Below, in pieces: positions 6,666 through 61,135 of a DNA stretch of 64,000 bases. Position 1 is the stretch's first letter, and every line of letters starts with the position of its first letter. The notes under the pieces were generated by a model. The model did not search any database. It was given only the letters and a program-made list of their open reading frames with translations, and was not told where the DNA came from. The position numbers and the translations under genes were made by a program. Source of the DNA: an uncultured Porphyromonadaceae bacterium (GTDB lineage: Bacteria > Bacteroidota > Bacteroidia > Bacteroidales > UBA12481); NCBI GenBank assembly GCA_964355105.1, contig CAYHCO010000003.1, positions 5,577 through 69,576 of the forward strand, given 5' to 3'.

Positions 6666-6675
6666 AGGTAACCAC

Positions 6676-6683
6676 TATATTTG
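6676..6683 (+). promoter_or_regulatory. -7 box TATATTTG, 5 nt upstream of the C10 protease ATG
   Basis: Matches TAnnTTTG. This implies a leaderless or very short-leader mRNA. Confidence 0.35.
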
Positions 6684-6688
6684 GCCCG

Positions 6689-12409: not shown

Positions 12410-12440
12410 TAGGCCTCGCTAAAGCTCGGCTAATTATTAA

Positions 12441-12529
12441 TTAGCGCGAAGCGCATAGTTAGCGAGCGTAAGCGAGCCTATTAGCGCGAAGCGCCTTTTA
12501 GCGAACGGAGTGAGCCTATTAGCGCATGC
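12441..12529 (+). repeat. ~40-bp tandem repeat, 2.3 copies (TTAGCG-rich)
   Basis: ttagcgcgaagcgcatagttagcgagcgtaagcgagccta / ttagcgcgaagcgccttttagcgaacggagtgagccta / ttagcgcatgc. An inverted partial copy lies at 12409..12432. Confidence 0.8.
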
Positions 12530-14461: not shown

Positions 14462-14520
14462 GGGTTTGGAGTTTCAGGGTTTCTTACTGCCTACTGCAAA
14501 CTGCCGACTGCCTACTGCTT
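14462..14520. repeat. heptanucleotide array (GGGTTTn then ACTGCnn units) abutting the uppP stop
   Basis: gggtttg gagtttc agggttt c tt actgcct actgcaa actgccg actgcct actgc, then tta (the stop codon of uppP on the minus strand). Confidence 0.8.
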
Positions 14521-24671: not shown

Positions 24672-24695
24672 CTGACAGGTCTATAAACCTGTCAG
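24672..24695 (+). repeat. CTGACAGG/CCTGTCAG hairpin (family copy)
   Basis: ctgacagg-tctataaa-cctgtcag, between the GT2 and M14 genes. Confidence 0.7.
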
Positions 24696-24710: not shown

Positions 24711-26714
24711 ATGAAACCCAGCCAACCCCCCCGGACTTTGCAATGCAACTTTTCTCCTTTCAAACTTTTCATACTTTACTTCCTGCCCTTCTGCCTTTTT
24801 GCCTTCCTGCCCTTATCTTCATCAGCCCAGGTTAAACCTCTCAGCACCGTTACCTGGCCCGAATCCGACAAGGATACCACGCATTACACCGTGAAGGGTT
24901 ACCGCCACGGAACCAGCGCATTTCCGCAGGTCAAACACAAGGAGGTGGAGTATACAGCCGGAGAAACACTCACCTGGGATCGGTATCACACTGTGGATGT
25001 GGTATATACCTGGCTGAAAAGGTGGGCTGAGAAATATCCCGAGCTGGTCGATCTGTATGAGGTGGGATTCAGTTATGAGGGTAGACCGATCCTGCAGGTT
25101 ACCCTCACCAATAAAAAGACCGGCAAGGATACCGACAAGCCGGCTGCCTTCTTCGAGGGTGGCAGGCATTCAGGTGAAGTCACCGCCACCGAGTCCGCCC
25201 TTTGGCTTCTAAATTATTTGCTGACGAATTACGGAAAAGATGCAGCAATAACTAAATTACTGGATACCAAATCGATATATATCAGACCCGAAAATAATCC
25301 GGACGGATCAAATATGTATCTGAATACCGCCCAAAGTAACCGGAGTACGGTGCGTCCAACGGATAATGATGGCGACGGTCTGCTGGATGAGGATCTGGGT
25401 GAAGACCTAGATGGCGATGGGGTGATCTATTCCATGCGCTGGCCCGATCTCGAAAAGGGAACCCTCATTCCCGATCCGCGCGACCCGTCGGGGCGGCTGA
25501 TGAAGCGGGTAGCCAAAGGCAAAGGTCTATGGTCGGGCGGTTCCGAAGGCTGGGATAATGACGGTGACGGGAAAATAAATGAGGACGGGGTCGGCGGTCT
25601 CGACCTGCATCGCAATTATCCGGAAAACTGGCGGCCCGATGAAAGAATGGATGCTACCGGCCGCGGATGGACGCAGGGCGGGGCGGGAGAATTTCCACTG
25701 AGCGAATCCGAGACCCGTGCCGTTTTCAGTTTTATGATCACCCATCCGAACATTTCGGTGGTCAATTCCATGGATACCCGGGTTCCCATGCATCTCCGCG
25801 GCCCCTCGACAGAGTTTTCGGCAAAGGGAATGTACGAAGCCGACCGGCATCTGCTTGAATATTACGATACATTGGGAATGAAGATCACCGGATATCCCTG
25901 GGCTGGAGATGTATATGACGAATACAACACCAAAGATCCGGTGAATGATTATACGGGAGACAGCGCCAAACCCGAACCGCTTTTCGGTCACGGTCCCGAT
26001 TTTGGATACAGCTATTTCGGAGCCGTCTGGTATGGCGATGAGCTATGGAACGGCGGACTGTACGCTGACCTGAACAAGGACGGAAAAAAAGATGAGCTGG
26101 ATATCCTTCTCTGGGATGACCGGGAGAATGGAGGTCGGGGTTTCCGGGAATGGACCACCGTGATGCATCCTTTTCTCGGCCCGGTAGAGATCGGCGGATA
26201 TCACCCCAAGTTTTTCGCCCAGAACCCACCACCACAGCACCTTGAGCCGTGGATCAGGAAACAGGCGATGTTTAACCTGGCCATGGCCGAGGATCTGCCG
26301 AATCTGGAATGGAAGTCCATTCAGGTCAGGAGGGCAAAAAGGCAAGAAGGCAAAAAGGAAAGTGATAAAATCATAAGCCAGAAGGACTCGGTGGATTATG
26401 TGGTTACGGTGAGCTGGGCAAATACCGCGCGTATTCCAACGGCACTCGATGTTGCCCAACGGGTGAAAATCGTGACTGAAGACCGCGCTGTGCTGGATTT
26501 CGACAAGAAATTGCTGGAGGGTGATGAGCCGAAAATCAAAATTGTGGATCCCAAATCTTTCGATAAATCCCGATACGCCCCGCACCTGTGGCAAAATCAG
26601 TCGGCCAGCGCCACTTTCACCGTCCGCGCCTATACCAAAGATCAAATCAAGGGCAAAGTGAAAGTTTTGTCGACACGCGGCGGCGTCTTGGAGAAGGAGA
26701 TTATTTTAGAATGA
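24711..26714 (+). CDS. M14-family zinc carboxypeptidase with Asp-rich calcium-loop-like insertions
   Basis: YHTVDVVYTWLKRWAEKYPELVDLYEVGFSYEGRPI...AAFFEGGRHSGEVTATES (HxxE zinc site). DNDGDGLLDEDLGEDLDGDG and DNDGDGKINEDG loops. Signal peptide ends ..LSSSAQ. Confidence 0.75.
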   Translation: MKPSQPPRTLQCNFSPFKLFILYFLPFCLFAFLPLSSSAQVKPLSTVTWPESDKDTTHYTVKGYRHGTSAFPQVKHKEVEYTAGETLTWDRYHTVDVVYTWLKRWAEKYPELVDLYEVGFSYEGRPILQVTLTNKKTGKDTDKPAAFFEGGRHSGEVTATESALWLLNYLLTNYGKDAAITKLLDTKSIYIRPENNPDGSNMYLNTAQSNRSTVRPTDNDGDGLLDEDLGEDLDGDGVIYSMRWPDLEKGTLIPDPRDPSGRLMKRVAKGKGLWSGGSEGWDNDGDGKINEDGVGGLDLHRNYPENWRPDERMDATGRGWTQGGAGEFPLSESETRAVFSFMITHPNISVVNSMDTRVPMHLRGPSTEFSAKGMYEADRHLLEYYDTLGMKITGYPWAGDVYDEYNTKDPVNDYTGDSAKPEPLFGHGPDFGYSYFGAVWYGDELWNGGLYADLNKDGKKDELDILLWDDRENGGRGFREWTTVMHPFLGPVEIGGYHPKFFAQNPPPQHLEPWIRKQAMFNLAMAEDLPNLEWKSIQVRRAKRQEGKKESDKIISQKDSVDYVVTVSWANTARIPTALDVAQRVKIVTEDRAVLDFDKKLLEGDEPKIKIVDPKSFDKSRYAPHLWQNQSASATFTVRAYTKDQIKGKVKVLSTRGGVLEKEIILE

Positions 26715-27810: not shown

Positions 27811-28800
27811 ATGAAATTCAGGCTTTTGATATCAATATTGATCATCCGCACCCTCACTTCCTGCGAAACGGTAAATACGCCACCGATCCCTAATGCGTTT
27901 TCGATTCCCAAGATCGGAGATACCACCACCGTTTTCATGCTTGACGGCAAAAACTCCAGTGATAAGGAATGTTCCTATTTTGCCCTGAAATTTCGCTGGG
28001 ATACCAATGCCGACGGGATTTGGGACTCGGAATATTCCACAAAATCCAGCTATACCAGCCGGTTCATCCATACCGGCTACCAGAAATACATACTGGAAGT
28101 CGCTGATGATGAAGGCAGTACCGCCACTTACACCGATTCGGTTTTTATCCTGATAAAAAACAGCGTTTCCGATACCCTGACCGACCCCCGCGACGGTCAC
28201 CGGTACCGGATCGTGAAAATCGGTAACCGCTGGTGGATGGCTGACAACCTCAAATACGGAGAGCCCGTTGATGTGCAGATCCCTCTAACCGACAACGGCC
28301 AGCCGGAATACCTGTATTTCAATAACCGGGCAGATTACAGCCATTACGGCGGTCTGTACACCTGGGTGGAGGCCAATCTCTATCCTTCCAATTACGTATA
28401 CCGGGATATTTGTCCGCCGGGTTGGAGGATTCCTACGGTGGCCCAGTGGTCGGAAGTTCTCAAAAAATACTCCTCGCCCTACGATGTTTTGTATTATTTC
28501 GGGCCCAATTCCGTTGAAAATCTCGGCATCGGAATGAACGGGTATTACCGGTACGGAGATCCCGATACACCCATGAAAGGTGAATTCAAAGGTGATAGTA
28601 TCAATGTAAGATATTGGACATCAGCTTATACCGATATTGATTCCACGCGTTATTTTACCGGCATACACTTCACCCGCGATTCGAGCTACTTCGTTCAAAG
28701 CATTGTTCGCCCCGAGTGGATCTACCATCCCCGCTTTCCGGGATTCATTATCGGGTATAAAACCCCCGAAGCCTGTTACGTCAGATGCGTGAAAGAATAG
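27811..28800 (+). CDS. FISUMP-domain lipoprotein with PKD-like domain; paralog of 882..1865
   Basis: Lipobox LTSCE. FRWDTNADGIWDSEY...LEVADDEG (PKD-like). LTDPRDGHRYRIVKIGNRWWMADNLKYG and CPPGWRIPT (FISUMP signature). Confidence 0.75.
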   Translation: MKFRLLISILIIRTLTSCETVNTPPIPNAFSIPKIGDTTTVFMLDGKNSSDKECSYFALKFRWDTNADGIWDSEYSTKSSYTSRFIHTGYQKYILEVADDEGSTATYTDSVFILIKNSVSDTLTDPRDGHRYRIVKIGNRWWMADNLKYGEPVDVQIPLTDNGQPEYLYFNNRADYSHYGGLYTWVEANLYPSNYVYRDICPPGWRIPTVAQWSEVLKKYSSPYDVLYYFGPNSVENLGIGMNGYYRYGDPDTPMKGEFKGDSINVRYWTSAYTDIDSTRYFTGIHFTRDSSYFVQSIVRPEWIYHPRFPGFIIGYKTPEACYVRCVKE

Positions 28801-28912
28801 CCGACTGCCAACTGCCGGCTGCCAACTGCCTACTGCCAACTGCCGACTGTCGACTGTCGACTGCCGACTGTCTCGTCTTCCGGGTTACGCGTTACGCGTC
28901 TCGCGTCTCGAT
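28801..28912. repeat. heptanucleotide array, 16 units (10 nnnACTG/CTGCC-type + 6 CG-rich)
   Basis: A strict 7-bp phase from the nt after TAG 28800 through the 3' end of the minus-strand YfhO-like ORF. Confidence 0.9.
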
Positions 28913-31377
28913 CTCACTTCCTGGTACACCGTAAAACCAATGAGCAGCAATACCAGAAAACTGCCGATCAGACTGATCGTCTTGCCGGTTTTTAGCGTTT
29001 TCGGCTCGAAACGGAATTCTATCGAGTGCTGGCCGGCCGGAACTACCATTGCGCGTAGTGCGTAATCGGCACGGATATGATCAACCTTTTTGCCGTCGAT
29101 ATAGGCTTGCCAGCCATACGGATAGTAAATCTGGGAGAACACAGCCAGACGGTTATCGGTGGATTTTGATTCGTATTTCAGGTAATTCGGCTTGCACTCT
29201 TTCAGCGCGATCATGTCGGGCTCAGGGTTTGGCGACAACTGTGCCGGCAGGGAAGATAGCTTGTCGGTAAAGCGCTTATCAACAACTGCTTCCGATGAAA
29301 GCGGCGTAGTTTCAAGTGCATCCAATTCCTGGTTGGCATTCTCAACCCACTTGATACGGTCGGCAAACCAGGCATCGCCAAAAGCATGCGCATTCTTTAT
29401 CGGAGCCTGCGGCATGAGAATAACATACCTGGCGTTTAACATGTTCAGAACATTCATCGATCCTAAAGCGGCATCAAACTTTTCAAAAGTAGGGTTGTCC
29501 TGTTTTAGTGCCTCGAGAGCGCTGGCGTTGGGCACCAGGTACTTGCTGATCAGATCCTGGTAACGGCCGAGTTTTGCACCATGATAACCACCGATCGAAT
29601 TATGGAACCTCGAGGCCCGTGCACTCTGGAAAGTACTGGTGGTCATGTCGAGCACCCGGAACCCTTCCGTTTTGTCCTTTAAGATAAACTCATCAGCCGG
29701 AGATGCCTTGAAAGCCTGTTCAATCTGACGTTTGCTGATGAAATTGTCGCTGCCGAGGTAGCGTTTTCCCACCGACCACATATCTACCAGGATCAGGAGG
29801 GCGAGACCGATAAACAGGTATTCGCGCTTCATTTTTGATTTCAGGGAATACCACAGGATGCCGGCAGCTCCCAAAACAAATATCAGGGTTCTGAAAGCAT
29901 CGCGACGGGCAAGCGAGATTCGGTCGTCACGCAATGCAGTCTTGATCCAGTCGGGGAAGTTGGCGTCCGATGCGCCGGTAAATGAACCGAACATCGAAGG
30001 GATAACAGCAACCAGCAAGGCAACGCCACCCGCGATTCCGGCAGCATAATAAAGCTGTTTCAGTTTGACCGTAGCCTCTGTTCCCTGATCGGTAAACCAT
30101 TCCCTGATCGCCAGGAAGGCCAGCAGGGGTATTGCAAACTGGGCAATGATGAGCGTATTGGTCACATCGCGAAACTTGGAGTAGAGCGGGAAATTATTTA
30201 CAAAAAACTCGGTGAGGCCCATGAAATTGCGGCCCCAGGAAAGTAATATGGCAATGACGATGATGGACGCCAGCCACCATTTCTTCTTGCCCTTGACGAT
30301 AAACAGGCCCAGAACGGCAAGGAAAACCGATATGGCCCCGATATAATGCGGTCCGGAAGTACCCAGATATTGGCTGCCCCAGTAGGACAGGCCGCGCGTA
30401 TATTGTTTAGCCTGTTCTGCGGGTATCTGGTTGTTGATCATGGCTTTGTAAGTCTCGGATTCGGTTCCGACATCGGTGCTGGATCCACCACCACTGAAGT
30501 TCGGGATAAACAGGTTGATGGTTTCACCAACGCCGTAGCTCCAGTCGGTAATGTATTTCACGTCGAGTCCCTTGGTTTTGGTCTCGCCCGGGGTAACCAG
30601 TTCCGACTGCCCCCTGGTCGACTCTTTGCTGTACTCCTGCGTAGTGAGGAGTGCTGTCATGTTCGGCAGAATAGCCAGGACAAGCGCGATCAGCAGGGTG
30701 ACCCCGGATTTCATGAAGTGATCGAAATATTTTTCCCTGATGGCAAAGATCAGTTCAACAAGCATGTACACCAGGATGATCAATCCCAGATAATAAGATA
30801 CCTGCGGGTGGTTGGTGACCAGCTGGATCCCGAATCCCATGGCCGTGAGCAAACCTCCGGCCAGGTATTTTCTTTTGAAAACAAGGAAAACGCCCGCAAT
30901 CACCGGAGCCATATAGGCGATTGCATAGATCTTGCTCACATGACCCGCCGCGATCAGCTGCAGGTGATGGGAACCAAACCCGAATGCCACCGCGCCGGCC
31001 AGTGCAAGCCACTGACTGAGCTTCAGTGTTCGGAGCAGGAAATAGAATCCCAGCATGCAAACAAACAGGATAGCTACGGTATATCCGGGCAGGTAAAGCT
31101 TCAGCGCACGGAAAACCCAAAGGAAAATATTCCCCGACGGGGCCGATTTGATCTGGTAAGCAGGCATCCCGGAGAAGGCCGAGTTGGTCCATCCGGAATA
31201 TTCGCCGGTCTGTTTCTGGAACTGCTCAACCTCGTTGGCCATATTCTTAGCCTGAACGATATCGTTCTGATACAGGATCTTACCCTCAAAAACCGGACTC
31301 ATGAAACCAAGAGCCAGCACAGCCATGATGGCAACCATCAGCAATTCAGGCCAAACAGCGCGCAAAATATTTTTCAT
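28885..31377 (-). CDS. YfhO-family integral membrane protein (glycosyltransferase-like)
   Basis: 830 aa. N-terminus ...FEGKILYQNDIVQAKNMANEVEQFQKQTGEYSGWTNSAFSGMPAYQI is typical of Bacteroidota YfhO proteins. Many TM segments and a large C-terminal extracytoplasmic domain. Confidence 0.7.
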   Translation of the reverse strand: MKNILRAVWPELLMVAIMAVLALGFMSPVFEGKILYQNDIVQAKNMANEVEQFQKQTGEYSGWTNSAFSGMPAYQIKSAPSGNIFLWVFRALKLYLPGYTVAILFVCMLGFYFLLRTLKLSQWLALAGAVAFGFGSHHLQLIAAGHVSKIYAIAYMAPVIAGVFLVFKRKYLAGGLLTAMGFGIQLVTNHPQVSYYLGLIILVYMLVELIFAIREKYFDHFMKSGVTLLIALVLAILPNMTALLTTQEYSKESTRGQSELVTPGETKTKGLDVKYITDWSYGVGETINLFIPNFSGGGSSTDVGTESETYKAMINNQIPAEQAKQYTRGLSYWGSQYLGTSGPHYIGAISVFLAVLGLFIVKGKKKWWLASIIVIAILLSWGRNFMGLTEFFVNNFPLYSKFRDVTNTLIIAQFAIPLLAFLAIREWFTDQGTEATVKLKQLYYAAGIAGGVALLVAVIPSMFGSFTGASDANFPDWIKTALRDDRISLARRDAFRTLIFVLGAAGILWYSLKSKMKREYLFIGLALLILVDMWSVGKRYLGSDNFISKRQIEQAFKASPADEFILKDKTEGFRVLDMTTSTFQSARASRFHNSIGGYHGAKLGRYQDLISKYLVPNASALEALKQDNPTFEKFDAALGSMNVLNMLNARYVILMPQAPIKNAHAFGDAWFADRIKWVENANQELDALETTPLSSEAVVDKRFTDKLSSLPAQLSPNPEPDMIALKECKPNYLKYESKSTDNRLAVFSQIYYPYGWQAYIDGKKVDHIRADYALRAMVVPAGQHSIEFRFEPKTLKTGKTISLIGSFLVLLLIGFTVYQEVRSRRETRNA

Positions 31378-34554: not shown

Positions 34555-34624
34555 GGCAGAGGGCAGAGGGCAAAGGGCATAAATTGGGAATAAGGAATAG
34601 GGAAGAGGGAATAGGGGAGGTTGG
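34555..34624 (+). repeat. heptanucleotide array (GGCAGAG-type, 10 units) starting right after the nadB stop; left arm of an inverted pair
   Basis: ggcagag ggcagag ggcaaag ggcataa attggga ataagga ataggga agaggga atagggg aggttgg. Confidence 0.85.
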
Positions 34625-34761
34625 ACAATGGTCCTGTATTTATTATTTGATTCCCCCACAGAAGGTTGGCGCATTGGATATTACGGGGATTCTTACTTAC
34701 TTGGCGACACTGCCGGCATCTTACGGGCCCGTCAATAAACCTTAACCAGACTTAGTCCTAA

Positions 34762-34811
34762 AACCTTTTCCCTATTACTAATTTTTGCCCTTTGCCTTCT
34801 GCCTTCTGCCC
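34762..34811 (-). repeat. inverted partner array (…TTTGCCC TTTGCCT TCTGCCT TCTGCCC) ending in the trpS stop codon
   Basis: Reverse complement gggcagaaggcagaaggcaaagggcaaaaattagtaatagggaaaagg aligns with the left arm 34555..34610. Confidence 0.8.
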
Positions 34812-39824: not shown

Positions 39825-40298
39825 TCAATAGTCAATCTTGATATGGGAATCGAGCCAGTCGTTGAACTCCTTACCCTGATCTTCAACATCGAGCTTCTCG
39901 AACGGGGTCAGCCGGCCGGCCGGCTCCCGTGCGATCTCTTCATACAGCTCGACATCGCGGAACCCCGCTTCTGCCGCATCCTGGCGGTCGGAAGCATATA
40001 CCACGCGGCTGATCCGCGACCAGTAAATGGCGCTCAGGCACATCGGGCAGGGCTCACAGGAAGTGTACAGGGTAGTCCCGGAGAGGTTAAAGGATTTCAG
40101 GTTCAATGCCGCCTGACGAATGGCCTGTATTTCGGCATGAGCAGTCGGATCCGGAATGGCAATCACCTGATTGGCGCATTCAGCCACCACTTCACCGTTT
40201 TTCACGACGACGGCGCCGAAAGGTCCGCCTCCGGTGGAAACATTGGTTCTGGCCAGCTGCACTGCGCGGGCAAGGAAAAATTTATCTGTCGTTTTCAT
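39825..40298 (-). CDS. guaD: guanine deaminase (CDA-fold, B. subtilis GuaD type) / nucleoside deaminase
   Basis: From the internal ATG: ..GGGPFGAVVVKNGEVVAE..DPTAHAEIQAIRQA...LYTSCEPCPMCLSAIYWSRISRVVYA..DAAEAGF closely follows the GuaD pattern. Confidence 0.65.
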   Translation of the reverse strand: MKTTDKFFLARAVQLARTNVSTGGGPFGAVVVKNGEVVAECANQVIAIPDPTAHAEIQAIRQAALNLKSFNLSGTTLYTSCEPCPMCLSAIYWSRISRVVYASDRQDAAEAGFRDVELYEEIAREPAGRLTPFEKLDVEDQGKEFNDWLDSHIKIDY

Positions 40299-41904
40299 GC
40301 GGGGTTTCGGGTATCGGGTTTCGGGTATCGTGTTTCGGGTTGGTTCCGTCGGCGAAGACGAAAAGGGAGTAAAAAACGGCGAAAAAAGCAACGCCGGCCT
40401 GGGTTTCAAGAGTATCTTCATTGATCATCGAAAGAAAGATGACCAGCAGAAACATGAGGATGAAATACTTGCTTTTTCCTCTTTCGATAAACATAGGCAG
40501 GAGAATGGCACTCATCAGGATGAGGAATCCTACAATCCCGAAGGTCAGGAGGAAGGTGAGAAACTGGTTATGAGCCCTTAACCTCCAGAGGGGTTCAAGC
40601 GGTGAATTCAGCTCGATATATTTCCGGTCGAACGCGGTTTTGGTATCGCCTGTGCCCACTCCAAAAACCGGATGATCCTTAAAGATGGCCCAGCCGGTTT
40701 TCAGGTATTCGAGCCGCTGGGTTACCGAGTGGCCGCTGGGGTTTGCCCCTTTACGGTACTGGTCTATCTCCCAGATGGTTTCGTACATGCGAACATCAAA
40801 ACTCTTCGGTTTTCGGTACATGCAATTGGCAAAACCGTTCTCTATCAGCCGAATATCATCCTTGTCGAGCAGGGACACCCCATATTCATCCTTGCGCAAT
40901 CCTTTCGAGGTGAGGTAGCGGATGAGCGTATACTTGATTTCCTGGCCCTTGAGGTCGCGACCATCAAAATCGAGGCGGCTCACCCGGTTCCAGGCTTCCC
41001 GCATTTCGGTCTCACACTGGTACCATCCCACCCGGTATCCGTTTTCAAGAAACGGATTGGTGGTATCGTGCCAGTAAGGATTTCCTTTCACAGTAGCCCG
41101 GTCGGGCTGCTCCTGCATTTCCCGCACCGTATAAAAGTCAGCCACCCGCCCGCTCAGATAAAATCCTGCCAGGACAGGCACAGTAAACAATCCGACCATC
41201 AAAAACCACCTGAGCATCGGGTCCGGCCTTTTCAGCCCCCAACGCAAGGTCAGGATCCATCCGCCAATGATCAGGATGACAACGCCGGTAAGCGATTTTA
41301 GAAGGAAAAGAAAGACCAACAGGCTGAGGGCACAGGGTATCAGAATCATTCTTAGCCTTGATGAGGAAAGGGGATCAAAAATGTATCGGAGGAGGATGAA
41401 TATCGCCATCACCACCATCAGGGCAAACCGGATATGTGAGATAAAAAGTACGGATTCACGGTCGCCGGTATACGTGGCCGGTCCGAAACCCATCATGATG
41501 CTCAGGCTGATCATGGCGCCGATCAGAACGGCGAAGGTGAAGGAACCGAGAATAAAGCGCATCTCGTTATTGTTCAATGGCCTGATACTGCCCAGAACCA
41601 GGGGCATCAGCAACAGGGGCAACTTGACTTTCACGTCATTAAGACCGTACGACAGATCGGAGGTATATAGAAGACCGGCTACCGGAACAAAGAAAAGCAG
41701 TGTGAAAATCAGGATCTGGGGCCGCATTTTTATGCGCCTCCATTTCTCGTCGAATTTACCTTCGGCAAGCCAGGTTACCGCAAGGAGTATCTGCGCGGCG
41801 CTGGCCAGGTATTTTGAAAGAGGCAGGCTGACCACGGTCACGAAAAGAAAAAACAGGGTAGCGTTCCTGAAAGTTACATGCCGTTTAATCAGATCGGGGT
41901 TCAT
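40282..41904 (-). CDS. O-antigen ligase (Wzy_C) family membrane protein
   Basis: From internal ATG 41904 (MNPDLIKRHVTFRNATLFFLF..). About 10 TM segments plus a soluble insert. Signature ..LWRLRAHNQFLTFLLTFGIVGF (HN..L...E.G..G type). The track ORF's upstream 147 aa cross a promoter region. Confidence 0.7.
   Translation of the reverse strand: MNPDLIKRHVTFRNATLFFLFVTVVSLPLSKYLASAAQILLAVTWLAEGKFDEKWRRIKMRPQILIFTLLFFVPVAGLLYTSDLSYGLNDVKVKLPLLLMPLVLGSIRPLNNNEMRFILGSFTFAVLIGAMISLSIMMGFGPATYTGDRESVLFISHIRFALMVVMAIFILLRYIFDPLSSSRLRMILIPCALSLLVFLFLLKSLTGVVILIIGGWILTLRWGLKRPDPMLRWFLMVGLFTVPVLAGFYLSGRVADFYTVREMQEQPDRATVKGNPYWHDTTNPFLENGYRVGWYQCETEMREAWNRVSRLDFDGRDLKGQEIKYTLIRYLTSKGLRKDEYGVSLLDKDDIRLIENGFANCMYRKPKSFDVRMYETIWEIDQYRKGANPSGHSVTQRLEYLKTGWAIFKDHPVFGVGTGDTKTAFDRKYIELNSPLEPLWRLRAHNQFLTFLLTFGIVGFLILMSAILLPMFIERGKSKYFILMFLLVIFLSMINEDTLETQAGVAFFAVFYSLFVFADGTNPKHDTRNPIPETPHENDR
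40302..40350. repeat. heptanucleotide array (GGGTTTC/GGGTATC units)
   Basis: gggtttc gggtatc gggtttc gggtatc gtgtttc gggttgg ttccgtc. On the minus strand it is read as the C-terminal tail ..NPKHDTRNPIPETPHENDR of the ligase-like ORF. Confidence 0.85.
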
Positions 41905-41921
41905 TTTTGCTGAATATGCTG

Positions 41922-41929
41922 CAAAAGTA
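41922..41929 (-). promoter_or_regulatory. -7 box TACTTTTG for the ligase-like gene
   Basis: Reverse complement of caaaagta, 18 nt upstream of ATG 41904. Confidence 0.4.
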
Positions 41930-42013
41930 GGTTTTACACAGGTGCAATTTAATAAGTTGTCCGGTTTTGAGTCAGGATAAGAATTAAAATCAAGTTTATT
42001 TGTATAAAAAACC

Positions 42014-42952
42014 ATGTATTCGGTCGGAATATTATCTGGGCAGGAAAAATGGCCGGAAGTTCTTGCAGAAATGCTGAAAACTTCCGGGTCCAATGTTTCC
42101 GGCTGGGTGAACCCCCAGGTATCTCCGCCGTCGGACACGCAGCAGCTGATTGATTTTTCCGACCTGATCTGGATTCCTGAAAAGATCAGCGGAAGCATGG
42201 AAGAAGCCATCCAGGTGATCCGCGGATCACGCCATCTGTCGCTGGGCTTCCCGGTTGTGGAGTTCATGGAAGAGGCACCGGGCATGGTCAAGCTGGCGCA
42301 TGAGGCCCGGGTGCAGGTGCAGATCGGGCATCCCGACTGGTACAACCCGGTGGTCCGGAGCGCGTTGAATCATATTTTTCAGCCCCAGAGCATCCGATTT
42401 ACCGATCATATCCCCGAATGGCCGGAAAAGGAGAGTTACATTCACGTTTTCAAAACCATCGTGGCCGACCTCGATCTGGCGCTGGGCCTTGCGGGCAGCA
42501 CGGTTCGAAGGATCAGGCCGCATGTTTCGAGGCTCCTCGACGGGACCGCAATCCAGATCGACATTCGGGTAGAGATGCATAATGGAACCGTTATCAGCCT
42601 GGAGATCAGGAAATTCACAAATATCGCCAGCAGGCGGATCGAGATCCTGCAACCTGCCGGCATCCTGAATATCGACCTGTTAAACGGCACCAGCACCTCG
42701 GAAGATTTCGGAATTCACGGTGGCAGAAAGCAGGCAAAGGTCTTATGGCCGGTTGCCGGAAAACCCGGAGAAGCCGGATTTCAGGATACACCCTCCGGAC
42801 CCACCGGTCAGAGCGACGAGGAGGCTGCGCGGCAATGCCTGAGTTTTATCCATGCGCTCGAGAAGGGCAGGCACTCACTTTCAAGCCTGGAGGGCGGTTT
42901 CAAGGCTCTCGAGATCACCCGTCAGATCGAAACAGCGGTGGGCAGCTTCTAA
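42014..42952 (+). CDS. hypothetical protein (weak Gfo/Idh/MocA-like layout, no intact GxGxxG)
   Basis: A 312-aa ORF with no competing conserved ORF on the other strand in its 3' two-thirds. No confident motif. Confidence 0.45.
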   Translation: MYSVGILSGQEKWPEVLAEMLKTSGSNVSGWVNPQVSPPSDTQQLIDFSDLIWIPEKISGSMEEAIQVIRGSRHLSLGFPVVEFMEEAPGMVKLAHEARVQVQIGHPDWYNPVVRSALNHIFQPQSIRFTDHIPEWPEKESYIHVFKTIVADLDLALGLAGSTVRRIRPHVSRLLDGTAIQIDIRVEMHNGTVISLEIRKFTNIASRRIEILQPAGILNIDLLNGTSTSEDFGIHGGRKQAKVLWPVAGKPGEAGFQDTPSGPTGQSDEEAARQCLSFIHALEKGRHSLSSLEGGFKALEITRQIETAVGSF

Positions 42953-49085: not shown

Positions 49086-49158
49086 AATTATCAGGCTCGG
49101 GCAAAAATAATCCGGGAAAATCCTTGTACATTTATACTTGAACTTAACCTGTGAAATT

Positions 49159-49920
49159 ATGACCTCTTTGATTCAAGCCGTTATCGTAGATGATGAAGAG
49201 AACAGCCTCGAGGCGCTTTCCATCCTTCTTCAAAGATATTGTCCTGATGTGCAGGTGGTTGGATCTGCTCAAACCGTTGAATCGGCCATTGAGCTGATCA
49301 ACAGGATAGAACCCGAACTGGTTTTTCTCGATATTGCTTTACCGGACGGACAGGGTTTTCAGGTTCTTGAAGATGTTGAGTTTACAGATTTCGAAGTGAT
49401 ATTTACCACCGCCTACGACCAGTATGCGCTCAAGGCATTCGACTTTTCGGCACTGGATTACCTGCTGAAACCCATCAGTACGGAAAAACTCCAGCAGGCT
49501 GTCGACCGGTATTCCAAGATCCGCAAGGAGGCAAAATTCGGCGACCGGGTATCTGTTTTGAGAGAAGGGCTCTCCAACCGGAACGAACGTATCATTCTCT
49601 CCTCAATGGACGGATTTGATGTGTACAAAATCGCAGATATCATTCGCTGTGAAGCGAATGGCAGTTATACGACCTTTTTCATCAAGGGAGGGCAGCGCAT
49701 CGTTACCTCCAAAACCCTGAACAATTTCGAAAGGCTGCTGACCGATCTGACCTTTGTAAGAGTCCACAGCAAGCATCTGATTAATGTTGAATACGTAAAG
49801 AAATATGTCTCCGGCCGCGGAGGATATATCATTTTCGAGGATGGCAGCCAGGTCGACGTGAGTGAGCGCAAAAAGAAGGAGTTCATCCAGCGCATGCGGG
49901 GACATGCCAGGACTACTTAA
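49159..49920 (+). CDS. LytTR-family response regulator (orphan)
   Basis: Receiver domain AVIVDDEENSLE...LVFLDIALPDGQGF. C-terminal LytTR DNA-binding domain (..IIRCEANGSYTTFFIKGGQRIVTSKTLNNFERLL....FVRVHSKHLINVEYVKK). Confidence 0.85.
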   Translation: MTSLIQAVIVDDEENSLEALSILLQRYCPDVQVVGSAQTVESAIELINRIEPELVFLDIALPDGQGFQVLEDVEFTDFEVIFTTAYDQYALKAFDFSALDYLLKPISTEKLQQAVDRYSKIRKEAKFGDRVSVLREGLSNRNERIILSSMDGFDVYKIADIIRCEANGSYTTFFIKGGQRIVTSKTLNNFERLLTDLTFVRVHSKHLINVEYVKKYVSGRGGYIIFEDGSQVDVSERKKKEFIQRMRGHARTT

Positions 49921-49928
49921 TCTTTATA

Positions 49929-49972
49929 CCTGACAGGCTTTAAAAACCTGTCAGGCATAAAAAACCTGTCAG
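49929..49972 (+). repeat. CCTGACAGG/CCTGTCAGG hairpin plus an extra CCTGTCAG half-site
   Basis: cctgacagg-ctttaaaaa-cctgtcagg-cataaaaaa-cctgtcag. Confidence 0.75.
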
Positions 49973-49992
49973 CTCTAAAATAAAATATTTCG

Positions 49993-50035: not shown

Positions 50036-52273
50036 ATGAAAAGATCTACACTACTAATTCTGATGTTGTCTTTGATGGTCATGGCCTACGGACAAAAGGT
50101 CAATGTCAATCAGGGCAAACCCATTGCCTTCGGCTCCGAATTGATCACCCCGGTTCCTCAACCCGCGGTATCTTTACTAAAAGCCGGTGGAGAAGTGTTT
50201 TATAAAGAAACTTTCAACTGGAAAAATGCTGCAGATCCAAAAGGATGGACCGCTCCTGCAGGGTTCCAGATTGTAGAAGAAACCGACTTTGGCTGTCCAT
50301 GGATTTGGCGGGCTGGTACCGACAGTATCAAGGGTGAGTTGACTTTTGAACCGGGTCATGCTTACTCTCTTACTCCTGAAGACGGCTATTTCGTTTTACC
50401 CATGGACGAGTATAACTACGTGGATGGGATCAGTACGGCTAACGGCGTCATCTCCTGGTTCCAATTACCCGAGCTCGATTGCTCAACACATCCCGGAGTC
50501 ATTTTAACCTTCAGGCAATTTTTCCGTCTTTATCCAAACACAGATGTTAAGGTTGCCGTTTCAAACGACCTTGGGGTTCACTGGGCAAACTATAATGTGT
50601 CCTTTGATACAAGAACCAGTATTTTCTGCAAAAATCCTTACCCGGAATTAAATATCTCCGAGGTTGCCGCCGGTATGCCTAAAGTTTGGATCAAGTTTAT
50701 CTGGAACGGTATGAGCCGGTATTTCTGGTGTATTGATGATATCGAACTGTTCGAAAGTTATGACAACGATATTATGATGGAGGGTACCTGGTCGTATGCG
50801 ATCGACCTTGATAATGCCGATAACAATGAAGGATTTGTTTACATGACTCCTTTATCGCAGATCGGGGTTGACAACTTTGGAGGCTACACCTTCGCCGGTG
50901 CCATGCTCAACGCAGGGCTTGATGACCAGGAGGATGTTAACCTCAATGTGAACATCTTAAAAAATGGAGTATCGGTGTATGATGAGAATTCCGTATCCAG
51001 GGATATCTGGTCGATTCAGCGGGATACTTTCCCCGTTACCAAAATTTACAATCCTGACGGGTACGGCGCCTACGAAATGACTTTAACCGCCAAGGCTAAG
51101 CAGACGGATCAAAGACCATTAAATAACAAATACTCTGACACTTTTTACATTACCGACAGTATCTATTCCGTTTGCGACTGGGAATTCGAAGAACATGCCA
51201 GTACGGCCGCCTGGGGGAACAATGACGGTGACTATATGGGAATAGCCTACGATATTAAAAAACCCGTTGAGGCTAACTCAATTTCCTGTATGATCATGCA
51301 GAGGCCAAAGAATAAAAAAGCCAGTACCCAGGTTGGTTATAATTTTCAGTACTGGATTTTCAAATGGGATGCCGGCGAAGGTGCCTGGGTGGAAGCCATC
51401 ATGTCGGAATATACCGAAGTAACCCAGGAAATGATTGACACCTGGGTGACTCTGCCTCTTCAGAAAGATGGTGAATCCGAATTTTTGGAACCTGGATTTT
51501 ATGTTGCAGCTATCCAGACATTCCACGGCGGCGGTGCTGGAGCCAGTAACAGGGTCTTCCGGTTTACTATCGGCGCCGATCAGAGTCACAGATTCGCATA
51601 TGGAAAAACACTATTCAAGCGTTACAACGATGCCGACTGGTCACAGAACGATGAGCTTGGAATGGTTCGCCTCAACATCAACAGCACCGGCGCACCAAAA
51701 ATAGCAGACGTTCAGTTTAATGTCGATATGACCCTGCCGATATCCAATGGCACATTCAAACCGGCTTCCGATTTTGTTGATGTAGCAGGTACTTTTAACA
51801 ACTGGGGATCATCGGATCACATGACCGATGGGGATGGTGACGGCATTTATACCCTATCGATCCCGGCTCAGAATGTATTTTCAAAAATTGAGTACAAATA
51901 CCGCATCAACGGCAACTGGAATACCTCCGAATTCCCGTCTGGCGGACCAAACAGGGTTTACCGTGTTTCCTACTATAACGCAACCCATGATGTATACAAC
52001 AACGGCAAGAGCCTGACCGTCGACGCCAATTCTCTGACCTCGTCGATCAATGCTTATCCGAACCCGACCACCGGGCAATTCACTCTGGCTGTAACGAATA
52101 CCCAGGTTGTGGATCTGAATATCCAGGTAACTAATATCCAGGGACAGGTTGTATATCAGAACATTGCCAAGTCGGTCCTGAACCATCAGGAAAATATCGA
52201 CCTGAGTGCATTTGCTAAAGGGATGTACTTCCTGAAGGTGAACAACCAGGTTATGAAGCTTCTGGTTGAGTAG
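50036..52273 (+). CDS. T9SS-secreted protein, paralog 1: choice-of-anchor-J/MAM-like N-terminal domain, CBM20/48-like domain, T9SS C-terminal sorting domain
   Basis: Signal peptide. EVFYKETFNWKNAADPKGWTAPAGFQIVE..WIW. VDVAGTFNNWGSSDHMTDGDGDGIYTLSI..EYKYRINGNW (carbohydrate-binding-module-like). CTD INAYPNPTTGQFTLAV....GMYFLKVNNQ. Confidence 0.7.
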   Translation: MKRSTLLILMLSLMVMAYGQKVNVNQGKPIAFGSELITPVPQPAVSLLKAGGEVFYKETFNWKNAADPKGWTAPAGFQIVEETDFGCPWIWRAGTDSIKGELTFEPGHAYSLTPEDGYFVLPMDEYNYVDGISTANGVISWFQLPELDCSTHPGVILTFRQFFRLYPNTDVKVAVSNDLGVHWANYNVSFDTRTSIFCKNPYPELNISEVAAGMPKVWIKFIWNGMSRYFWCIDDIELFESYDNDIMMEGTWSYAIDLDNADNNEGFVYMTPLSQIGVDNFGGYTFAGAMLNAGLDDQEDVNLNVNILKNGVSVYDENSVSRDIWSIQRDTFPVTKIYNPDGYGAYEMTLTAKAKQTDQRPLNNKYSDTFYITDSIYSVCDWEFEEHASTAAWGNNDGDYMGIAYDIKKPVEANSISCMIMQRPKNKKASTQVGYNFQYWIFKWDAGEGAWVEAIMSEYTEVTQEMIDTWVTLPLQKDGESEFLEPGFYVAAIQTFHGGGAGASNRVFRFTIGADQSHRFAYGKTLFKRYNDADWSQNDELGMVRLNINSTGAPKIADVQFNVDMTLPISNGTFKPASDFVDVAGTFNNWGSSDHMTDGDGDGIYTLSIPAQNVFSKIEYKYRINGNWNTSEFPSGGPNRVYRVSYYNATHDVYNNGKSLTVDANSLTSSINAYPNPTTGQFTLAVTNTQVVDLNIQVTNIQGQVVYQNIAKSVLNHQENIDLSAFAKGMYFLKVNNQVMKLLVE

Positions 52274-52437: not shown

Positions 52438-54675
52438 ATGAAAAAATTTACACTATTAATTCTGATGTTGTCTTTGATGGTCATGACCTTCGGACAAAGG
52501 GTCAATGTCAATCAGGGCAAACCCATTGCCTTCGGCTCCGAATTGATCACCCCGGTTCCTCAACCGGCGGCATCTTTGCTTAAAGCCGGCGGTGACGTGT
52601 TTTACAAAGAGACTTTCAACTGGAAAAATGCTGCCGATCCGAAAGGGTGGACCGCCCCGGCAGGATTCCAGATCGTTGAAGAAACCGACTTTGGTTGTCC
52701 ATGGATTTGGAGGGCAGGTACCGACAGTATCAAGGGCATGCTGACTTTTGAACCCGGCCACGCCTACTCTCTTACACCTGAAGACGGCTATTTCGTTTTA
52801 CCCATGGACGAGTATAACTACGTCGACGGGGTCAATACTGCTAACGGAGTCATTTCCTGGTTCCAATTACCCGAGCTCGATTGCTCAACACATCCCGGAG
52901 TCATTTTAACCTTCAGGCAATTTTTCCGTCTTTATCCAAACACAGATGTTAAGGTTGCCGTTTCAAACGACCTTGGGGTTCACTGGGCAAACTATAATGT
53001 GTCCTTTGATACAAGAACCAGTATTTTCTGCAAAAATCCTTACCCGGAATTAAATATCTCCGAGGTTGCCGCCGGTATGCCTAAAGTTTGGATCAAGTTT
53101 ATCTGGAACGGTATGAGCCGGTATTTCTGGTGTATTGATGATATCGAACTGTTCGAAAGTTATGACAACGATATTATGATGGAGGGTACCTGGTCGTATG
53201 CGATCGACCTTGATAATGCCGATAACAATGAAGGATTTGTTTACATGACTCCTTTATCGCAGATCGGGGTTGACAACTTTGGAGGCTACACCTTCGCCGG
53301 TGCCATGCTCAACGCAGGGCTTGATGACCAGGAGGATGTTAACCTCAATGTGAACATCTTAAAAAATGGAGTATCGGTGTATGATGAGAATTCCGTATCC
53401 AGGGATATCTGGTCGATTCAGCGGGATACTTTCCCCGTTACCAAAATTTACAATCCTGACGGGTACGGCGCCTACGAAATGACTTTAACCGCCAAGGCTA
53501 AGCAGACGGATCAAAGACCATTAAATAACAAATACTCTGACACTTTTTACATTACCGACAGTATCTATTCCGTTTGCGACTGGGAATTCGAAGAACATGC
53601 CAGTACGGCCGCCTGGGGGAACAATGACGGTGACTATATGGGAATAGCCTACGATATTAAAAAACCCGTTGAGGCTAACTCAATTTCCTGTATGATCATG
53701 CAGAGGCCAAAGAATAAAAAAGCCAGTACCCAGGTTGGTTATAATTTTCAGTACTGGATTTTCAAATGGGATGCTACAGAAGGTGCCTGGGTTGAAGCCA
53801 TCATGTCGGCATATACTGAGGTAACCCAGGAAATGATTGACACCTGGGTAACAGTGCCACTGGAAAAAGATGGTGAATCCGAATTCCTGGAACCGGGGTA
53901 TTATGTTGCAGCTATCCAAACTTTCCATGGTGGCGGGCTTGGCGCCACTAACAGTGTCTTCCGGTTTACCATCGGGGCCGATCAGAGTCACAGATTCGCA
54001 TATGGGAAAACACTTTTCAAACGATACAACGATGCTGACTGGTCACAGAACGATGAACTTGGAATGATCCGTCTGAACATTAACAGTACGGGCGCGCCAA
54101 AAATAGCAGATGTTCAGTTTAATGTCGATATGACACTGCCGATATCCAATGGCACGTTCAAGCCGGCTTCCGATTTTGTTGATGTAGCCGGTACTTTTAA
54201 CAACTGGGGATCATCGGATCACATGACCGATGGGGATGGTGACGGCATTTATACCCTATCGATCCCGGCTCAGAATGTATTTTCAAAAATTGAGTACAAA
54301 TACCGCATCAACGGCAACTGGAATACCTCTGAATTCCCGTCAGGCGGGCCGAACAGGGTTTACCGTGTTTCCTATTATAACGCAACCCACGATGTGTACA
54401 ACAACGGCAAGAGCCTGGCCATCGATGCCAATTCGCTGACCTCCTCGATCAATGCTTACCCGAACCCGACCGACGGACAATTCACTCTGGCGGTAACGAA
54501 TACGCAAGTTGTGGATCTGAATATCCAGGTAACCAATATTCAGGGACAGGTTGTATATCAGAACATTGCCAAGTCGGTACTGAACTATCAGGAAAATATC
54601 GACCTGAGTGCGTTTGCCAAGGGAATGTATTTCCTGAAGGTGAACAACCAGGTTATAAAGCTATTGGTTGAGTAG
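52438..54675 (+). CDS. T9SS-secreted protein, paralog 2 (same architecture as 50036..52273)
   Basis: 745 aa, colinear with paralog 1 and identical in its central third. T9SS CTD INAYPNPTDGQFTLAV. Confidence 0.7.
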   Translation: MKKFTLLILMLSLMVMTFGQRVNVNQGKPIAFGSELITPVPQPAASLLKAGGDVFYKETFNWKNAADPKGWTAPAGFQIVEETDFGCPWIWRAGTDSIKGMLTFEPGHAYSLTPEDGYFVLPMDEYNYVDGVNTANGVISWFQLPELDCSTHPGVILTFRQFFRLYPNTDVKVAVSNDLGVHWANYNVSFDTRTSIFCKNPYPELNISEVAAGMPKVWIKFIWNGMSRYFWCIDDIELFESYDNDIMMEGTWSYAIDLDNADNNEGFVYMTPLSQIGVDNFGGYTFAGAMLNAGLDDQEDVNLNVNILKNGVSVYDENSVSRDIWSIQRDTFPVTKIYNPDGYGAYEMTLTAKAKQTDQRPLNNKYSDTFYITDSIYSVCDWEFEEHASTAAWGNNDGDYMGIAYDIKKPVEANSISCMIMQRPKNKKASTQVGYNFQYWIFKWDATEGAWVEAIMSAYTEVTQEMIDTWVTVPLEKDGESEFLEPGYYVAAIQTFHGGGLGATNSVFRFTIGADQSHRFAYGKTLFKRYNDADWSQNDELGMIRLNINSTGAPKIADVQFNVDMTLPISNGTFKPASDFVDVAGTFNNWGSSDHMTDGDGDGIYTLSIPAQNVFSKIEYKYRINGNWNTSEFPSGGPNRVYRVSYYNATHDVYNNGKSLAIDANSLTSSINAYPNPTDGQFTLAVTNTQVVDLNIQVTNIQGQVVYQNIAKSVLNYQENIDLSAFAKGMYFLKVNNQVIKLLVE

Positions 54676-54683
54676 GAGCGTTT

Positions 54684-56920: not shown

Positions 56921-56930
56921 CAAAAAGAAA

Positions 56931-56972
56931 GGCAGAAGGCAGAAGGCAGAAGGCAGAAGGCAGAAGGCACAA
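56931..56972 (+). repeat. perfect (GGCAGAA)x5 + GGCACAA heptanucleotide array 10 nt after tRNA-Leu
   Basis: ggcagaa x5 at 56931..56965, then ggcacaa. Confidence 0.95.
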
Positions 56973-56988
56973 GTAATTGGGCCTTTTT
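56964..56988 (+). repeat. 25-bp direct repeat, left copy
   Basis: 24/25 identical to 57981..58005. Confidence 0.9.
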
Positions 56989-60349: not shown

Positions 60350-61027
60350 ATGAAAAACATAAGTTTAAAAACCGCCGGTTTGGTGACCGCTTTGTTCTTT
60401 TTAACCGGAATGATGACGGTAACCATAGCCCAGCAGGGTCATATGAGGTTTCGGGGCGGAGCAGGCGAAGGGAGCACAGGTCGCGGTGAAATGCTCAAGC
60501 TGACCGAAGATCAGAAAAAGCAGATGCCGGAACTCAAAGCCAGGTTCCAGGAAGAATCAACCAGGATCAAAAATCTCATCCGGGAAAAACAGGCTCATGT
60601 TAAAACCCTGGTCGATACCGAAAACAGGGATCCAAAAGATCTCAATAAAACTATTGACGACCTTTCAGCGCTTAGGGGCGACCTGATGAAAAAGGCTATT
60701 GAACACCGTGATGCCGTTAAAAAAATCCTCACTCCCGAGCAGATGAAGATCTGGCAACGCGCAGCACACCAGCGCATGCAGGGAATGGCTCCGGGAATGG
60801 GTAGAGGCATGGGTAAAGGCATGGGCAGAGGCATGGGCAGAGGCATGGGACAAGCGCCCATGACCCGCAGCATGCATGTCACCAGCGAGAACGGAGTAGT
60901 TACGGTTGAATCAAGTTCGGATAATTTTCAGGGAAAAGTTATTTCAGTCGAAGGCCATCCGATGAAGGTTGACAAAAAATCGAAAAAGAAGATCGGGGAA
61001 CGAAAGATCGAGAAAGAAGATCGGTAG
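60350..61027 (+). CDS. Spy/CpxP-family periplasmic protein (LTxxQ motifs) with a (GMGR)n repeat
   Basis: Signal/TM. LKLTEDQKKQMPELKARFQEE and LTPEQMKIWQ (LTxxQ). MAPGMGRGMGKGMGRGMGRGMGQ low-complexity tract (12-bp period at 60794..60853). Confidence 0.6.
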   Translation: MKNISLKTAGLVTALFFLTGMMTVTIAQQGHMRFRGGAGEGSTGRGEMLKLTEDQKKQMPELKARFQEESTRIKNLIREKQAHVKTLVDTENRDPKDLNKTIDDLSALRGDLMKKAIEHRDAVKKILTPEQMKIWQRAAHQRMQGMAPGMGRGMGKGMGRGMGRGMGQAPMTRSMHVTSENGVVTVESSSDNFQGKVISVEGHPMKVDKKSKKKIGERKIEKEDR

Positions 61028-61135
61028 ACGGTAGACGAGACACGAAACGCGAGACACGAGACACGGAAGACTGAAGACTGCCAACTGAAGACTGCCGACT
61101 GCCGACTGCCGACTGCCGGCTGCCAACTGAAGACT
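61024..61135. repeat. heptanucleotide array, 16 units (6 CG-rich + 10 GAAGACT/GCCGACT-type), beginning with the TAG stop
   Basis: gtagacg gtagacg agacacg aaacgcg agacacg agacacg gaagact gaagact gccaact gaagact gccgact gccgact gccgact gccggct gccaact gaagact. Confidence 0.9.

Follow-up and report, generated by a model that had tools for sequence, protein, structure and literature searches.

Heptanucleotide repeat arrays at gene 3' ends in an uncultured Bacteroidales lineage, including a composite array that fills the convergent gap downstream of yfhO

The DNA considered here is a stretch of 64,000 nt (the window) from an uncultured Porphyromonadaceae bacterium (GCA_964355105.1, contig CAYHCO010000003.1), and our subject is a tract of 112 nt at positions 28801-28912 in which tandem heptanucleotides lie between two converging genes. 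On the plus strand is a gene for a 329-aa protein with a Fib_succ_major domain (27811..28800, an open reading frame (ORF) with the Pfam assignment made on the identical gene of a sister strain, L001), and the array begins 0 nt after its TAG. On the minus strand is yfhO, a gene for a YfhO-family membrane protein of 830 aa (28885..31377, from the ORF and its homologues), whose product ends ...VRSRRETRNA* in a basic, unconstrained C-terminal tail written in heptamers. The tract occupies the entire 84-nt gap between the TAG of the first gene and the TAA of the second, and it also supplies the last eight codons and the stop of yfhO on the minus strand.

Three parts can be distinguished in the tract. 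The first consists of ten heptamers of the type ACTGCCN (CCGACTG and similar units in another register) at 28801..28870, and their G-rich version, GGCAGTN, is read on the minus strand, in the sense direction of yfhO. Two degenerate units that keep the phase, TCTCGTC and TTCCGGG (28871..28884), join this block to the CG-rich heptamers at 28885..28912, which read on the minus strand as ATCGAGA, CGCGAGA, CGCGTAA and CGCGTAA and encode SRRETRNA and the TAA of YfhO. A first-pass annotation of this DNA had given the sequence and the units correctly, as reading the letters confirms, and its statement that the 830-aa minus-strand ORF ends ...VRSRRETRNA* within the CG-rich units is borne out by translation. 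It had also described a strict 7-bp phase over 112 bp; the phase is kept throughout, but the strictness is not, as units 11 and 12 bear little resemblance to those beside them (by eye, 5 and 4 mismatches from unit to unit, with TCTCGTC resembling TCTCGCG four units further on). The focal tract consists, more accurately, of a 10-unit ACTGCCN block and then, in phase, of short CG-rich blocks.

The periodicity itself is not in doubt. Tandem Repeats Finder reports 28800-28870 as a tract of period 7 with 10.1 copies and 84% matches, and the CG-rich part as two tracts of period 7 (28884-28899 and 28895-28910, 2.3 copies each). At a lag of 7 the tract is identical to itself at 80 of 105 positions (76%), compared with 14-28% at the lags between 1 and 20 that are not multiples of 7, and the best 105-nt stretch at lag 7 in 50 first-order Markov randomisations of the 64 kb scored 48. 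The focal repeat is thus real and far beyond chance, and like the long simple sequence repeats (LSSRs) of other prokaryotes it consists of head-to-tail 7-bp copies in a longer run than chance produces (10.1 copies; 80/105 against a maximum of 48). The earlier remark that a period of 7 cannot be driven by codons is supported. A simple lag-identity scan of the window for short tandem periods found nine tracts of period 7 (425 bp), two of period 8, one of period 12, five of period 14 (a multiple of 7) and none of periods 4-6, 9-11, 13 or 15. In the syntenic loci of relatives described below, among them L002-L004 and L129-L131, period 7, together with some period 8, again dominates the short tandem periods, with one tract each at periods 9 and 10. 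The excess of period 7 over other unit lengths, also a property of LSSRs, is therefore found both in the window and in its relatives. At least 18 canonical units occur across the syntenic loci; the period is constant among arrays and the sequence is variable.

The nine period-7 tracts of the window cluster into seven array loci, every one of which lies at a stop codon or a tRNA 3' end, and the adjacency to stop codons noted in the first-pass annotation holds at all seven if the tRNA 3' end is counted. By type of intergenic gap, none of the 8 divergent gaps has an array, against 2 of 7 convergent and 4 of 38 tandem ones, and each array is on the 3' side; this is the non-coding bias near ORF ends and the depletion between divergent genes that LSSRs display. 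In other taxa with a GC content below 0.55, an ORF 3' end is found within 10 nt of 51 of 174 tracts and a 5' end near 10, although in this count 5' ends were called less precisely than 3' ends. The arrays that abut 3' ends in the syntenic loci are also oriented: of 17 gene-array adjacencies, 15 have a purine-rich sense strand and 14 have more G than C on it, the orthologous arrays in this count being non-independent observations.

The same 16-unit array is present in L001, an independent Logan assembly of a sister strain, save for two base changes in the CG-rich units that turn the tail ...ETRNA into ...GTRNA, and the yfhO 3' end of L001 differs from that of the window by ~10 substitutions. 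An assembly artefact, the possibility that the first-pass annotation had wanted checked, is ruled out by the presence of the array in a second assembly whose yfhO 3' end is this far removed; heptamer arrays are present also in JGI, ENA and NCBI assemblies, including a complete 5.4-Mb chromosome. Between window 28890-28990 and L001 2119-2219 the ~10 substitutions lie within 100 nt of yfhO, and the 3' end of the Fib_succ_major gene and the CTGCC block (the ten ACTGCCN units) are 100% identical; this break in identity next to the array suggests a recombination boundary at or near it. An exact junction search of metagenome contigs for the focal array gave no match, and a protein-guided search of metagenome contigs gave a single locus, 64% identical, without the array.

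To place the focal array in its lineage, ten syntenic loci from related Bacteroidales were compared, with YfhO identities of 68-85% and including the complete 5.4-Mb chromosome OW818688.1 (L002). The CTGCC block at the yfhO gap is found in the window and in L001 only, and is absent from L002, L003/L004 and L125-L132. The gap past the 3' end of yfhO is 84 nt long and wholly array in the window and L001, 9 nt long in L130, and nonexistent in L128, where the genes overlap; in L126 and L132 it holds a palindromic element resembling repetitive extragenic palindromes (REP-like) without an array, and in L003, L004 and L127 it holds (GTGACRR)n arrays. Because it is absent from all other relatives examined, the 10-unit CTGCC block at 28801-28870 would be a recent, species-specific and dispensable expansion. 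The CG-rich units of the YfhO tail appear to be older, since ACGCGTA units and the ...ETRNA* tail are common to the window and L130/P0019. The ending ...KVTSDK*, shared by many YfhO homologues, is (GTGACAA)n translated in frame, and such tails imply that arrays have repeatedly overwritten the unconstrained basic tail of YfhO. Phase variation of yfhO was considered as a role for the array and rejected: the array reaches the last eight codons alone, and a change in copy number would alter the tail and not silence the gene.

The clearest trace of how the arrays change comes from L003 and L004, which encode an identical YfhO protein. The two differ by an exact 42-bp indel (six units, 14 aa, frame kept) in an array inside the ORF of an M14 peptidase, and by an exact 7-bp indel together with unit substitutions in the array at the nadB 3' end, with identical flanks in both cases. 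The repeats inside the M14 ORF are of CTGCC/GGCAA type and lie in the signal-peptide and linker regions (L003 15622-15654 vs L004 9081-9150). Exact multiples of the unit between identical flanks are the signature of strand slippage filtered by selection on the reading frame, and among the functions listed in the first-pass annotation the slippage-prone tract is the one that these indels between near-identical strains support. Variation in copy number and sequence at the same site in close relatives, a further property of LSSRs, is thus found at the L003/L004 arrays; the focal CTGCC block is identical in L001. In L127 a dispersed repeat of ~750 nt that holds REP-like palindromes has arrays as its ends next to the genes: these composite arrays, past yfhO and past nadB, are 93% complementary inverted copies of each other. 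This indicates that arrays can also be copied from site to site.

Taking these observations together, we consider it fairly probable that the focal tract is a heptanucleotide simple sequence repeat (SSR) of the class that includes long SSRs and the short tandemly repeated repetitive (STRR) sequences, generated by slippage, tolerated at gene 3' ends and expanding up to them. Strand misalignment in 7-nt steps at replication or repair would generate the arrays and keep resizing them, point mutations in single units would be re-amplified into in-phase blocks of differing units, and whole composite arrays would occasionally be copied among sites by recombination. Arrays would persist only where they are tolerated, which is just past stop codons and tRNA ends, in unconstrained C-terminal tails and, inside linkers, as frame-preserving multiples of three units. 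If arrays expand, eroding their flanks, until they meet constrained sequence, they would be expected to start 0 nt from stops and could fill a convergent gap.

Several observations weigh against this account. All 13 arrays that can be assigned to a single gene are purine-rich on the sense strand (two double-gene arrays were set aside), and a purine-rich sense strand downstream of genes is not explained by pure neutral slippage. Nor does neutral slippage account for the return of the same CTGCC/GGCAG words in separate, independent arrays and in different phyla. The inverted pair of arrays between trpS and nadB (GGCAGAR units) is kept in relatives down to 68% YfhO identity. The focal array itself shows no difference in unit number, one other strain (L001) having been compared. 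Finally, the step of 7 nt is unexplained, the polymerase footprint being a published hypothesis and not a demonstrated mechanism. We consider it likely that secondary selection acts on the orientation of some arrays and on the hairpins they form, without being their origin.

The strongest competing explanation starts from that trpS/nadB gap. It holds that the arrays are selected structural elements of gene 3' ends, whose hairpins, in RNA or as cruciforms, would end or insulate transcription from converging genes or shield mRNA 3' ends, with slippage merely tuning the length of the stem; we regard it as possible, though on the unlikely side. In the window the convergent gap at 34552-34813 is predicted to fold as one long hairpin (-110 kcal/mol, z = -6.2), with arms made of inverted heptamer arrays over 50 nt at 84% complementarity. 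The left arm (34555..34618, plus strand) begins 0 nt past the stop of a nadB-like gene and consists of GGCAGAG three to four times and then GGGAATA five times; the right arm (34782..34810, minus strand) begins 0 nt past the trpS stop and consists of GGCAGAA twice and then GGCAAAG and GGCAAAA. An inverted pair abutting both stops is found in six loci, namely the window, L002 (4505-6794), L129 (6464-6635), L131 (6521-6624), L128 (6284-6714) and L003 (6331-6663), and across these loci the arms are heptamer (or octamer) arrays with arm-duplex energies from -68 to -102 kcal/mol; in L131 all 104 nt of the gap are essentially one hairpin, with an arm duplex of -81 kcal/mol. Because loci vary too widely in arm length and register for formal covariation, a cross-locus matrix of duplex energies was used instead. 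The units are of GGCAGAR type in five of the six loci, and in L003 both arms have switched jointly to CTCAGTA, so that the L003 5' arm pairs at -79 kcal/mol with its own 3' arm and at only -8 to -24 kcal/mol with the 3' arms of other loci. Such a joint change of arms could equally arise by gene conversion or template switching between inverted repeats, and L125, L126, L127 and L130 are without the inverted pair. In L002 the loop of this hairpin carries a group II intron (4894-6710 of the L002 locus, which is from OW818688.1; Rfam group-II-D1D4-3 and D1D4-1, with an ORF for RVT_1 and GIIM domains at 5231-6628).

For the focal array the structural explanation predicts that the yfhO transcript ends in a hairpin. 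The minus-strand RNA of 28791-28922 does fold somewhat better than shuffled sequence (-46.1 kcal/mol, z = -2.0, with 5 of 200 shuffles equally good), and the predicted structure is an interrupted hairpin of ~25 bp at 28799-28862, in which GGCAGUN units pair with themselves through G.U pairs, followed by the U-rich CUAUUCUUUC; this is the only terminator-like site of the gap. On the plus strand the transcript has less structure than its shuffles (z = +1.2), and the array has no inverted partner. The suggestion of the first-pass annotation that this array is a terminator surrogate is accordingly possible and unproven, with weak structure on one strand and none on the other, and scans of the window for consensus terminators and promoters gave no enrichment over shuffles. 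The purine-rich sense strand in 15 of 17 adjacencies would fit a structural role, as would the downstream coding-strand preference and inverted pairs reported for other heptamers by Rehm et al. (PMC4692102) and the P6b stem of the Nostoc tRNA-Leu intron, a precedent for heptamers as both arms of a hairpin (PMC3488679). Against it stand the non-independence of the orthologous arrays in that count, the absence of the CTGCC block from all other relatives, two of which have almost no gap in which to place one (9 nt; overlap), and the array at 61076-61135, which has a C-rich sense strand and its own canonical terminator behind it. A selected structural role for some arrays, and especially for the trpS/nadB pair, is plausible from these predicted folds but unproven. 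A bolder version would see an evolvable modular 3'-end system, in which arrays with a G-rich sense strand and inverted pairs are selected hairpins that terminate or insulate converging transcription, stems are resized in 7-nt steps while arms change together, and the recurrence of CTGCC in Cyanobacteria, Acidobacteriota, Planctomycetota and Bacteroidota reflects a shared period-specific mechanism of generation or selection; this we hold to be quite unlikely.

It would be more surprising still if the arrays were parts or footprints of small mobile or dispersed elements, resembling REPs or miniature inverted-repeat transposable elements (MITEs), that insert at gene 3' ends and have heptamers as their termini. 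The idea draws on the L127 arrays, which end ~750-nt inverted dispersed repeats with REP-like palindromes, on the REP-like GGGACGGGGTCCC...GGGATGACA elements that lie in the same gaps in L003, L126, L127, L130 and L132, and on the ending GGCAhAAATTrG shared by GGCAGAA arrays at three sites of the window. The focal gap, however, consists of heptamers alone, without REP-like sequence, and neither terminal inverted repeats nor target duplications flank the arrays. Where strains differ by indels, they do so by whole numbers of units within arrays and not by gain or loss of entire elements, arrays within ORFs come in frame-preserving multiples, and the Pfam search of the window places no transposase nearby. 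The units of the focal tract are contiguous, without the spacers of clustered regularly interspaced short palindromic repeats (CRISPR) and without the palindrome of a REP or MITE. The REP-like palindromes form a family of their own (GGTTCCCGC..GCGGGAATGACA / GGGACGGGGTCCCG..CGGGATGACA), present in the window at 18264-18334, in L003 at 12720-12830 and 6420-6570, and in the gaps of L126, L127, L130 and L132. In relatives this family and the heptamer arrays occupy the same 3' gaps, and in L127 it forms the ~750-nt inverted dispersed repeats that flank nadB-glyS-yfhO.

We give very little credence to the arrays being sites for a sequence-specific DNA- or RNA-binding protein (S1, Csp or CsrA-like), a role that MacGregor proposed for TAACTGA upstream of start codons (PMC4679880) and that the first-pass annotation had listed, for although a CTGCC/GGCAG core recurs at six sites of the window and in many phyla, the constant feature across arrays is the period and not the sequence, many unrelated units are used, both orientations occur, the arrays lie downstream of genes and not at ribosome-binding sites (that at 40302 excepted), and they are freely gained and lost between close relatives.

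Tandem Repeats Finder recovers an array at every other coordinate given in the first-pass annotation, and its picture of a lineage-wide genomic habit is upheld. On the minus strand at 14462..14518, 0 nt from the TAA of uppP/bacA, is a composite of degenerate GGGTTTN units followed by five ACTGCCN units, with the G-rich strand being the sense strand of the gene. The array at 40302..40341 has 5.7 copies of GGGTTTC/GGGTATC (of G3N4 type) and lies in the last 20 codons of a Wzy_C-like ORF (40285..42345, minus strand), 2 nt upstream of a deaminase ATG at 40299; this ORF, whose tail comes from the array, overlaps the start of the downstream dCMP/tRNA-type deaminase by 18 nt (40282-40299), and the junction in relatives has gaps of 6-20 nt or a 4-nt overlap. 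On the plus strand, an array of AAGGCAG (6.4 copies, 97% matches; 56922..56973) begins directly past the 3' end of tRNA-Leu(CAA), identified with Rfam, and a 16-unit in-phase composite at 61022..61135, made of CGGTAGA twice, four units of CGAGACA type and nine of CTGAAGA/CTGCCGA type, holds in its first unit the TAG of a Metal_resist/LTXXQ gene and is followed by a canonical terminator hairpin at 61136-61161. The first-pass annotation had placed all these arrays in the same word family, which is right for some of them and not for GGGTWTC (40302), GGGAATA (34582-34616) or CGAGACA (61035-61065). It had also reported shorter runs inside the M14 gene, and these exist, but with period 8 and not 7: YTTCTGCC four times in the signal-peptide region (24779..24811, plus strand) and a run of GGCAAAAA/GGCAAGAA in the linker (26333..26358, plus strand), which is orthologous to the heptamer array responsible for the 42-bp difference between the M14 ORFs of L003 and L004.

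Other repeats and neighbouring genes of the window were recorded in passing. The Metal_resist/LTXXQ gene has a 12-bp in-frame repeat (60797-60849, residues of GMGRGMGK type) and a 13-bp repeat (60979-61023) before its terminal heptamer array, its entire 3' third being built of repeats. The convergent gap between UDG and queA (12440-12525) contains a repeat of another type, a 38-bp unit present 2.2 times (ATTAGCGCGAAGCGCATAGTTAGCGAACGTAAGCGAGCCT), and is a 3' gap without heptamers. An 18-mer, ACCTGTCAGGCTTTAAAA, occurs three times at 49928-49980, directly past a LytTR response-regulator gene (49138..49920) and upstream of two tandem paralogous genes (50036..52273 and 52438..54675) for 745-aa proteins with type IX secretion system (T9SS) tails; an inverted copy follows the second paralogue (54680-54717), and a palindrome CTGACAGG...CCTGTCAG lies at 24672-24695, upstream of the M14 gene. 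The 18-mer repeats and the palindrome may be candidate LytTR operator sites. A minimal nucleotidyltransferase/HEPN pair (57127-57829) lies downstream of tRNA-Leu and its array, and a YafQ-family toxin gene (2197-2472) adjoins tRNA-Asn. By Pfam, the gene content is typical of Bacteroidota (Por_Secre_tail/T9SS cargo, Fib_succ_major, ribosomal genes), and the closest named YfhO homologues come from metagenome-assembled genomes (MAGs) of uncultured Bacteroidales/Bacteroidia. Among ~50 ORFs of the window Pfam found housekeeping, T9SS and toxin-antitoxin families and no XisH/XisI, transposase or reverse transcriptase, and Rfam found in the window two tRNAs only, with no known structured RNA at the arrays.

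The distribution of such arrays reaches well beyond this lineage. A scan for (CTGCCNN)x4 in 596 Gb, one genome per species, returned at least 120 stretches where a simple calculation gives ~1 match by chance, with taxa read from the record titles. Among the matches listed, Cyanobacteria account for ~45 stretches (about 40%; Nostoc, Okeania, Symploca and Microcoleus are among them) and Bacteroidota for ~12 (with Saprospiraceae, Niastella, Mucilaginibacter, Flavobacteriaceae and two Bacteroidales MAGs), and there are others in Acidobacteriota, Planctomycetota, Gemmatimonadota and Chloroflexota. Period-7 tracts at these 120 loci sum to 14,985 bp, no other period from 4 to 12 exceeds 1,149 bp, and the commonest unit there is AAGGCAG, which is also the unit past tRNA-Leu in the window.

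What bacterial heptamer repeats do, and why their step is 7 nt, are questions that go back to the description of STRR sequences in 1990. The present clade offers a compact comparative set, with many syntenic metagenomic relatives and the complete genome OW818688.1, in which orthologous sites reveal indels of slippage type, arrays that have invaded C-termini, a biased orientation and inverted arms that changed together, and such comparisons make it possible to test a passive repeat against a selected 3'-end structure. There are practical consequences as well, as arrays of this kind can produce spurious C-terminal extensions, protein tails that vary among strains and broken short-read assemblies, and can serve as strain markers.

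Among known systems the first to compare are the STRR sequences, which Mazel and colleagues are said to have described in 1990 from heterocystous cyanobacteria with the units CCCCAGT, TTGGTCA and CAACAGT. The likeness that the first-pass annotation saw is real in that both are tandem heptanucleotide arrays scattered in non-coding DNA and that CTGCC heptamers are common in cyanobacteria, being frequent in Nostoc, Okeania, Symploca and Microcoleus. The host here, however, is a member of the Bacteroidales and not a heterocystous cyanobacterium, and none of the three STRR units occurs in tandem on either strand of the window. A second family, TAACTGA and mixed heptamer arrays, was described by MacGregor (2015) in Beggiatoaceae, Cyanobacteria and five Bacteroidetes (PMC4679880), and the statement of the first-pass annotation that no equivalent had been described in Bacteroidota is therefore wrong. 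These too are intergenic direct repeats of heptamers, with long mixed arrays in Gramella, Aequorivita and Elizabethkingia (PMC4679880), and their ACTG core is found in ACTGCCN, ACTGAAG and ACTGAGT as well. Most of them are placed a few nt before start codons and not at 3' ends like the present arrays, and in the window TAACTGA occurs as two singletons, never in tandem. In the Nostoc tRNA-Leu intron, heptamers form both arms of a hairpin and vary in copy number (PMC3488679), which matches the trpS/nadB inverted pair; that hairpin is inside a group I intron and not between converging genes, and the focal array is unpaired.

Two further sets of repeats offer parallels in genomic behaviour. Rehm et al. 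(2015) described GGGAATC/GGGGAYT heptamer arrays in Xanthomonas and Nostoc, with no function established (PMC4692102), that favour intergenic DNA, lie near ORF ends, have the G-rich strand downstream on the coding strand, are rare between divergent ORFs, keep their site between species without keeping length or sequence, and occasionally form inverted pairs (PMC4692102). Two window arrays, 40302 (GGGTWTC) and 34582 (GGGAATA), are of the same G3N4 type, and at least four G3 tracts with 4-nt spacing, as a heptamer G-quadruplex requires, are present in 40302-40341 and 34555-34618; the focal ACTGCCN units differ in having no G3 runs and hence no possible G-quadruplex, and the organism and unit families differ too. 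The broader class is that of the LSSRs. According to the accounts of Mrazek et al. (2007) given in PMC4679880 and PMC4692102, heptanucleotides dominate the long SSRs of many prokaryotes, and polymerase slippage specific to heptamers, with a footprint of ~7 nt, was proposed as the cause. As far as the accounts of that class go (Mrazek 2007; Huang & Mrazek 2014, PMC4060949), it shares with the present arrays the tandem 7-bp units, the excess of period 7, the intergenic bias, the patchy phylogeny and the presumed slippage. The present arrays differ in that most begin exactly at stops and several are read as C-terminal residues, and this uncultured Bacteroidales clade is not among the taxa highlighted in those summaries of the Mrazek surveys (PMC4679880, PMC4692102). 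Since the defining units of the STRR and TAACTGA families are not tandem in the window, we assign the focal tract to the general class of heptamer SSRs and not to either family, and since that class is already known, in Bacteroidetes among others, what is new is the lineage and the clean comparative illustration that it provides.

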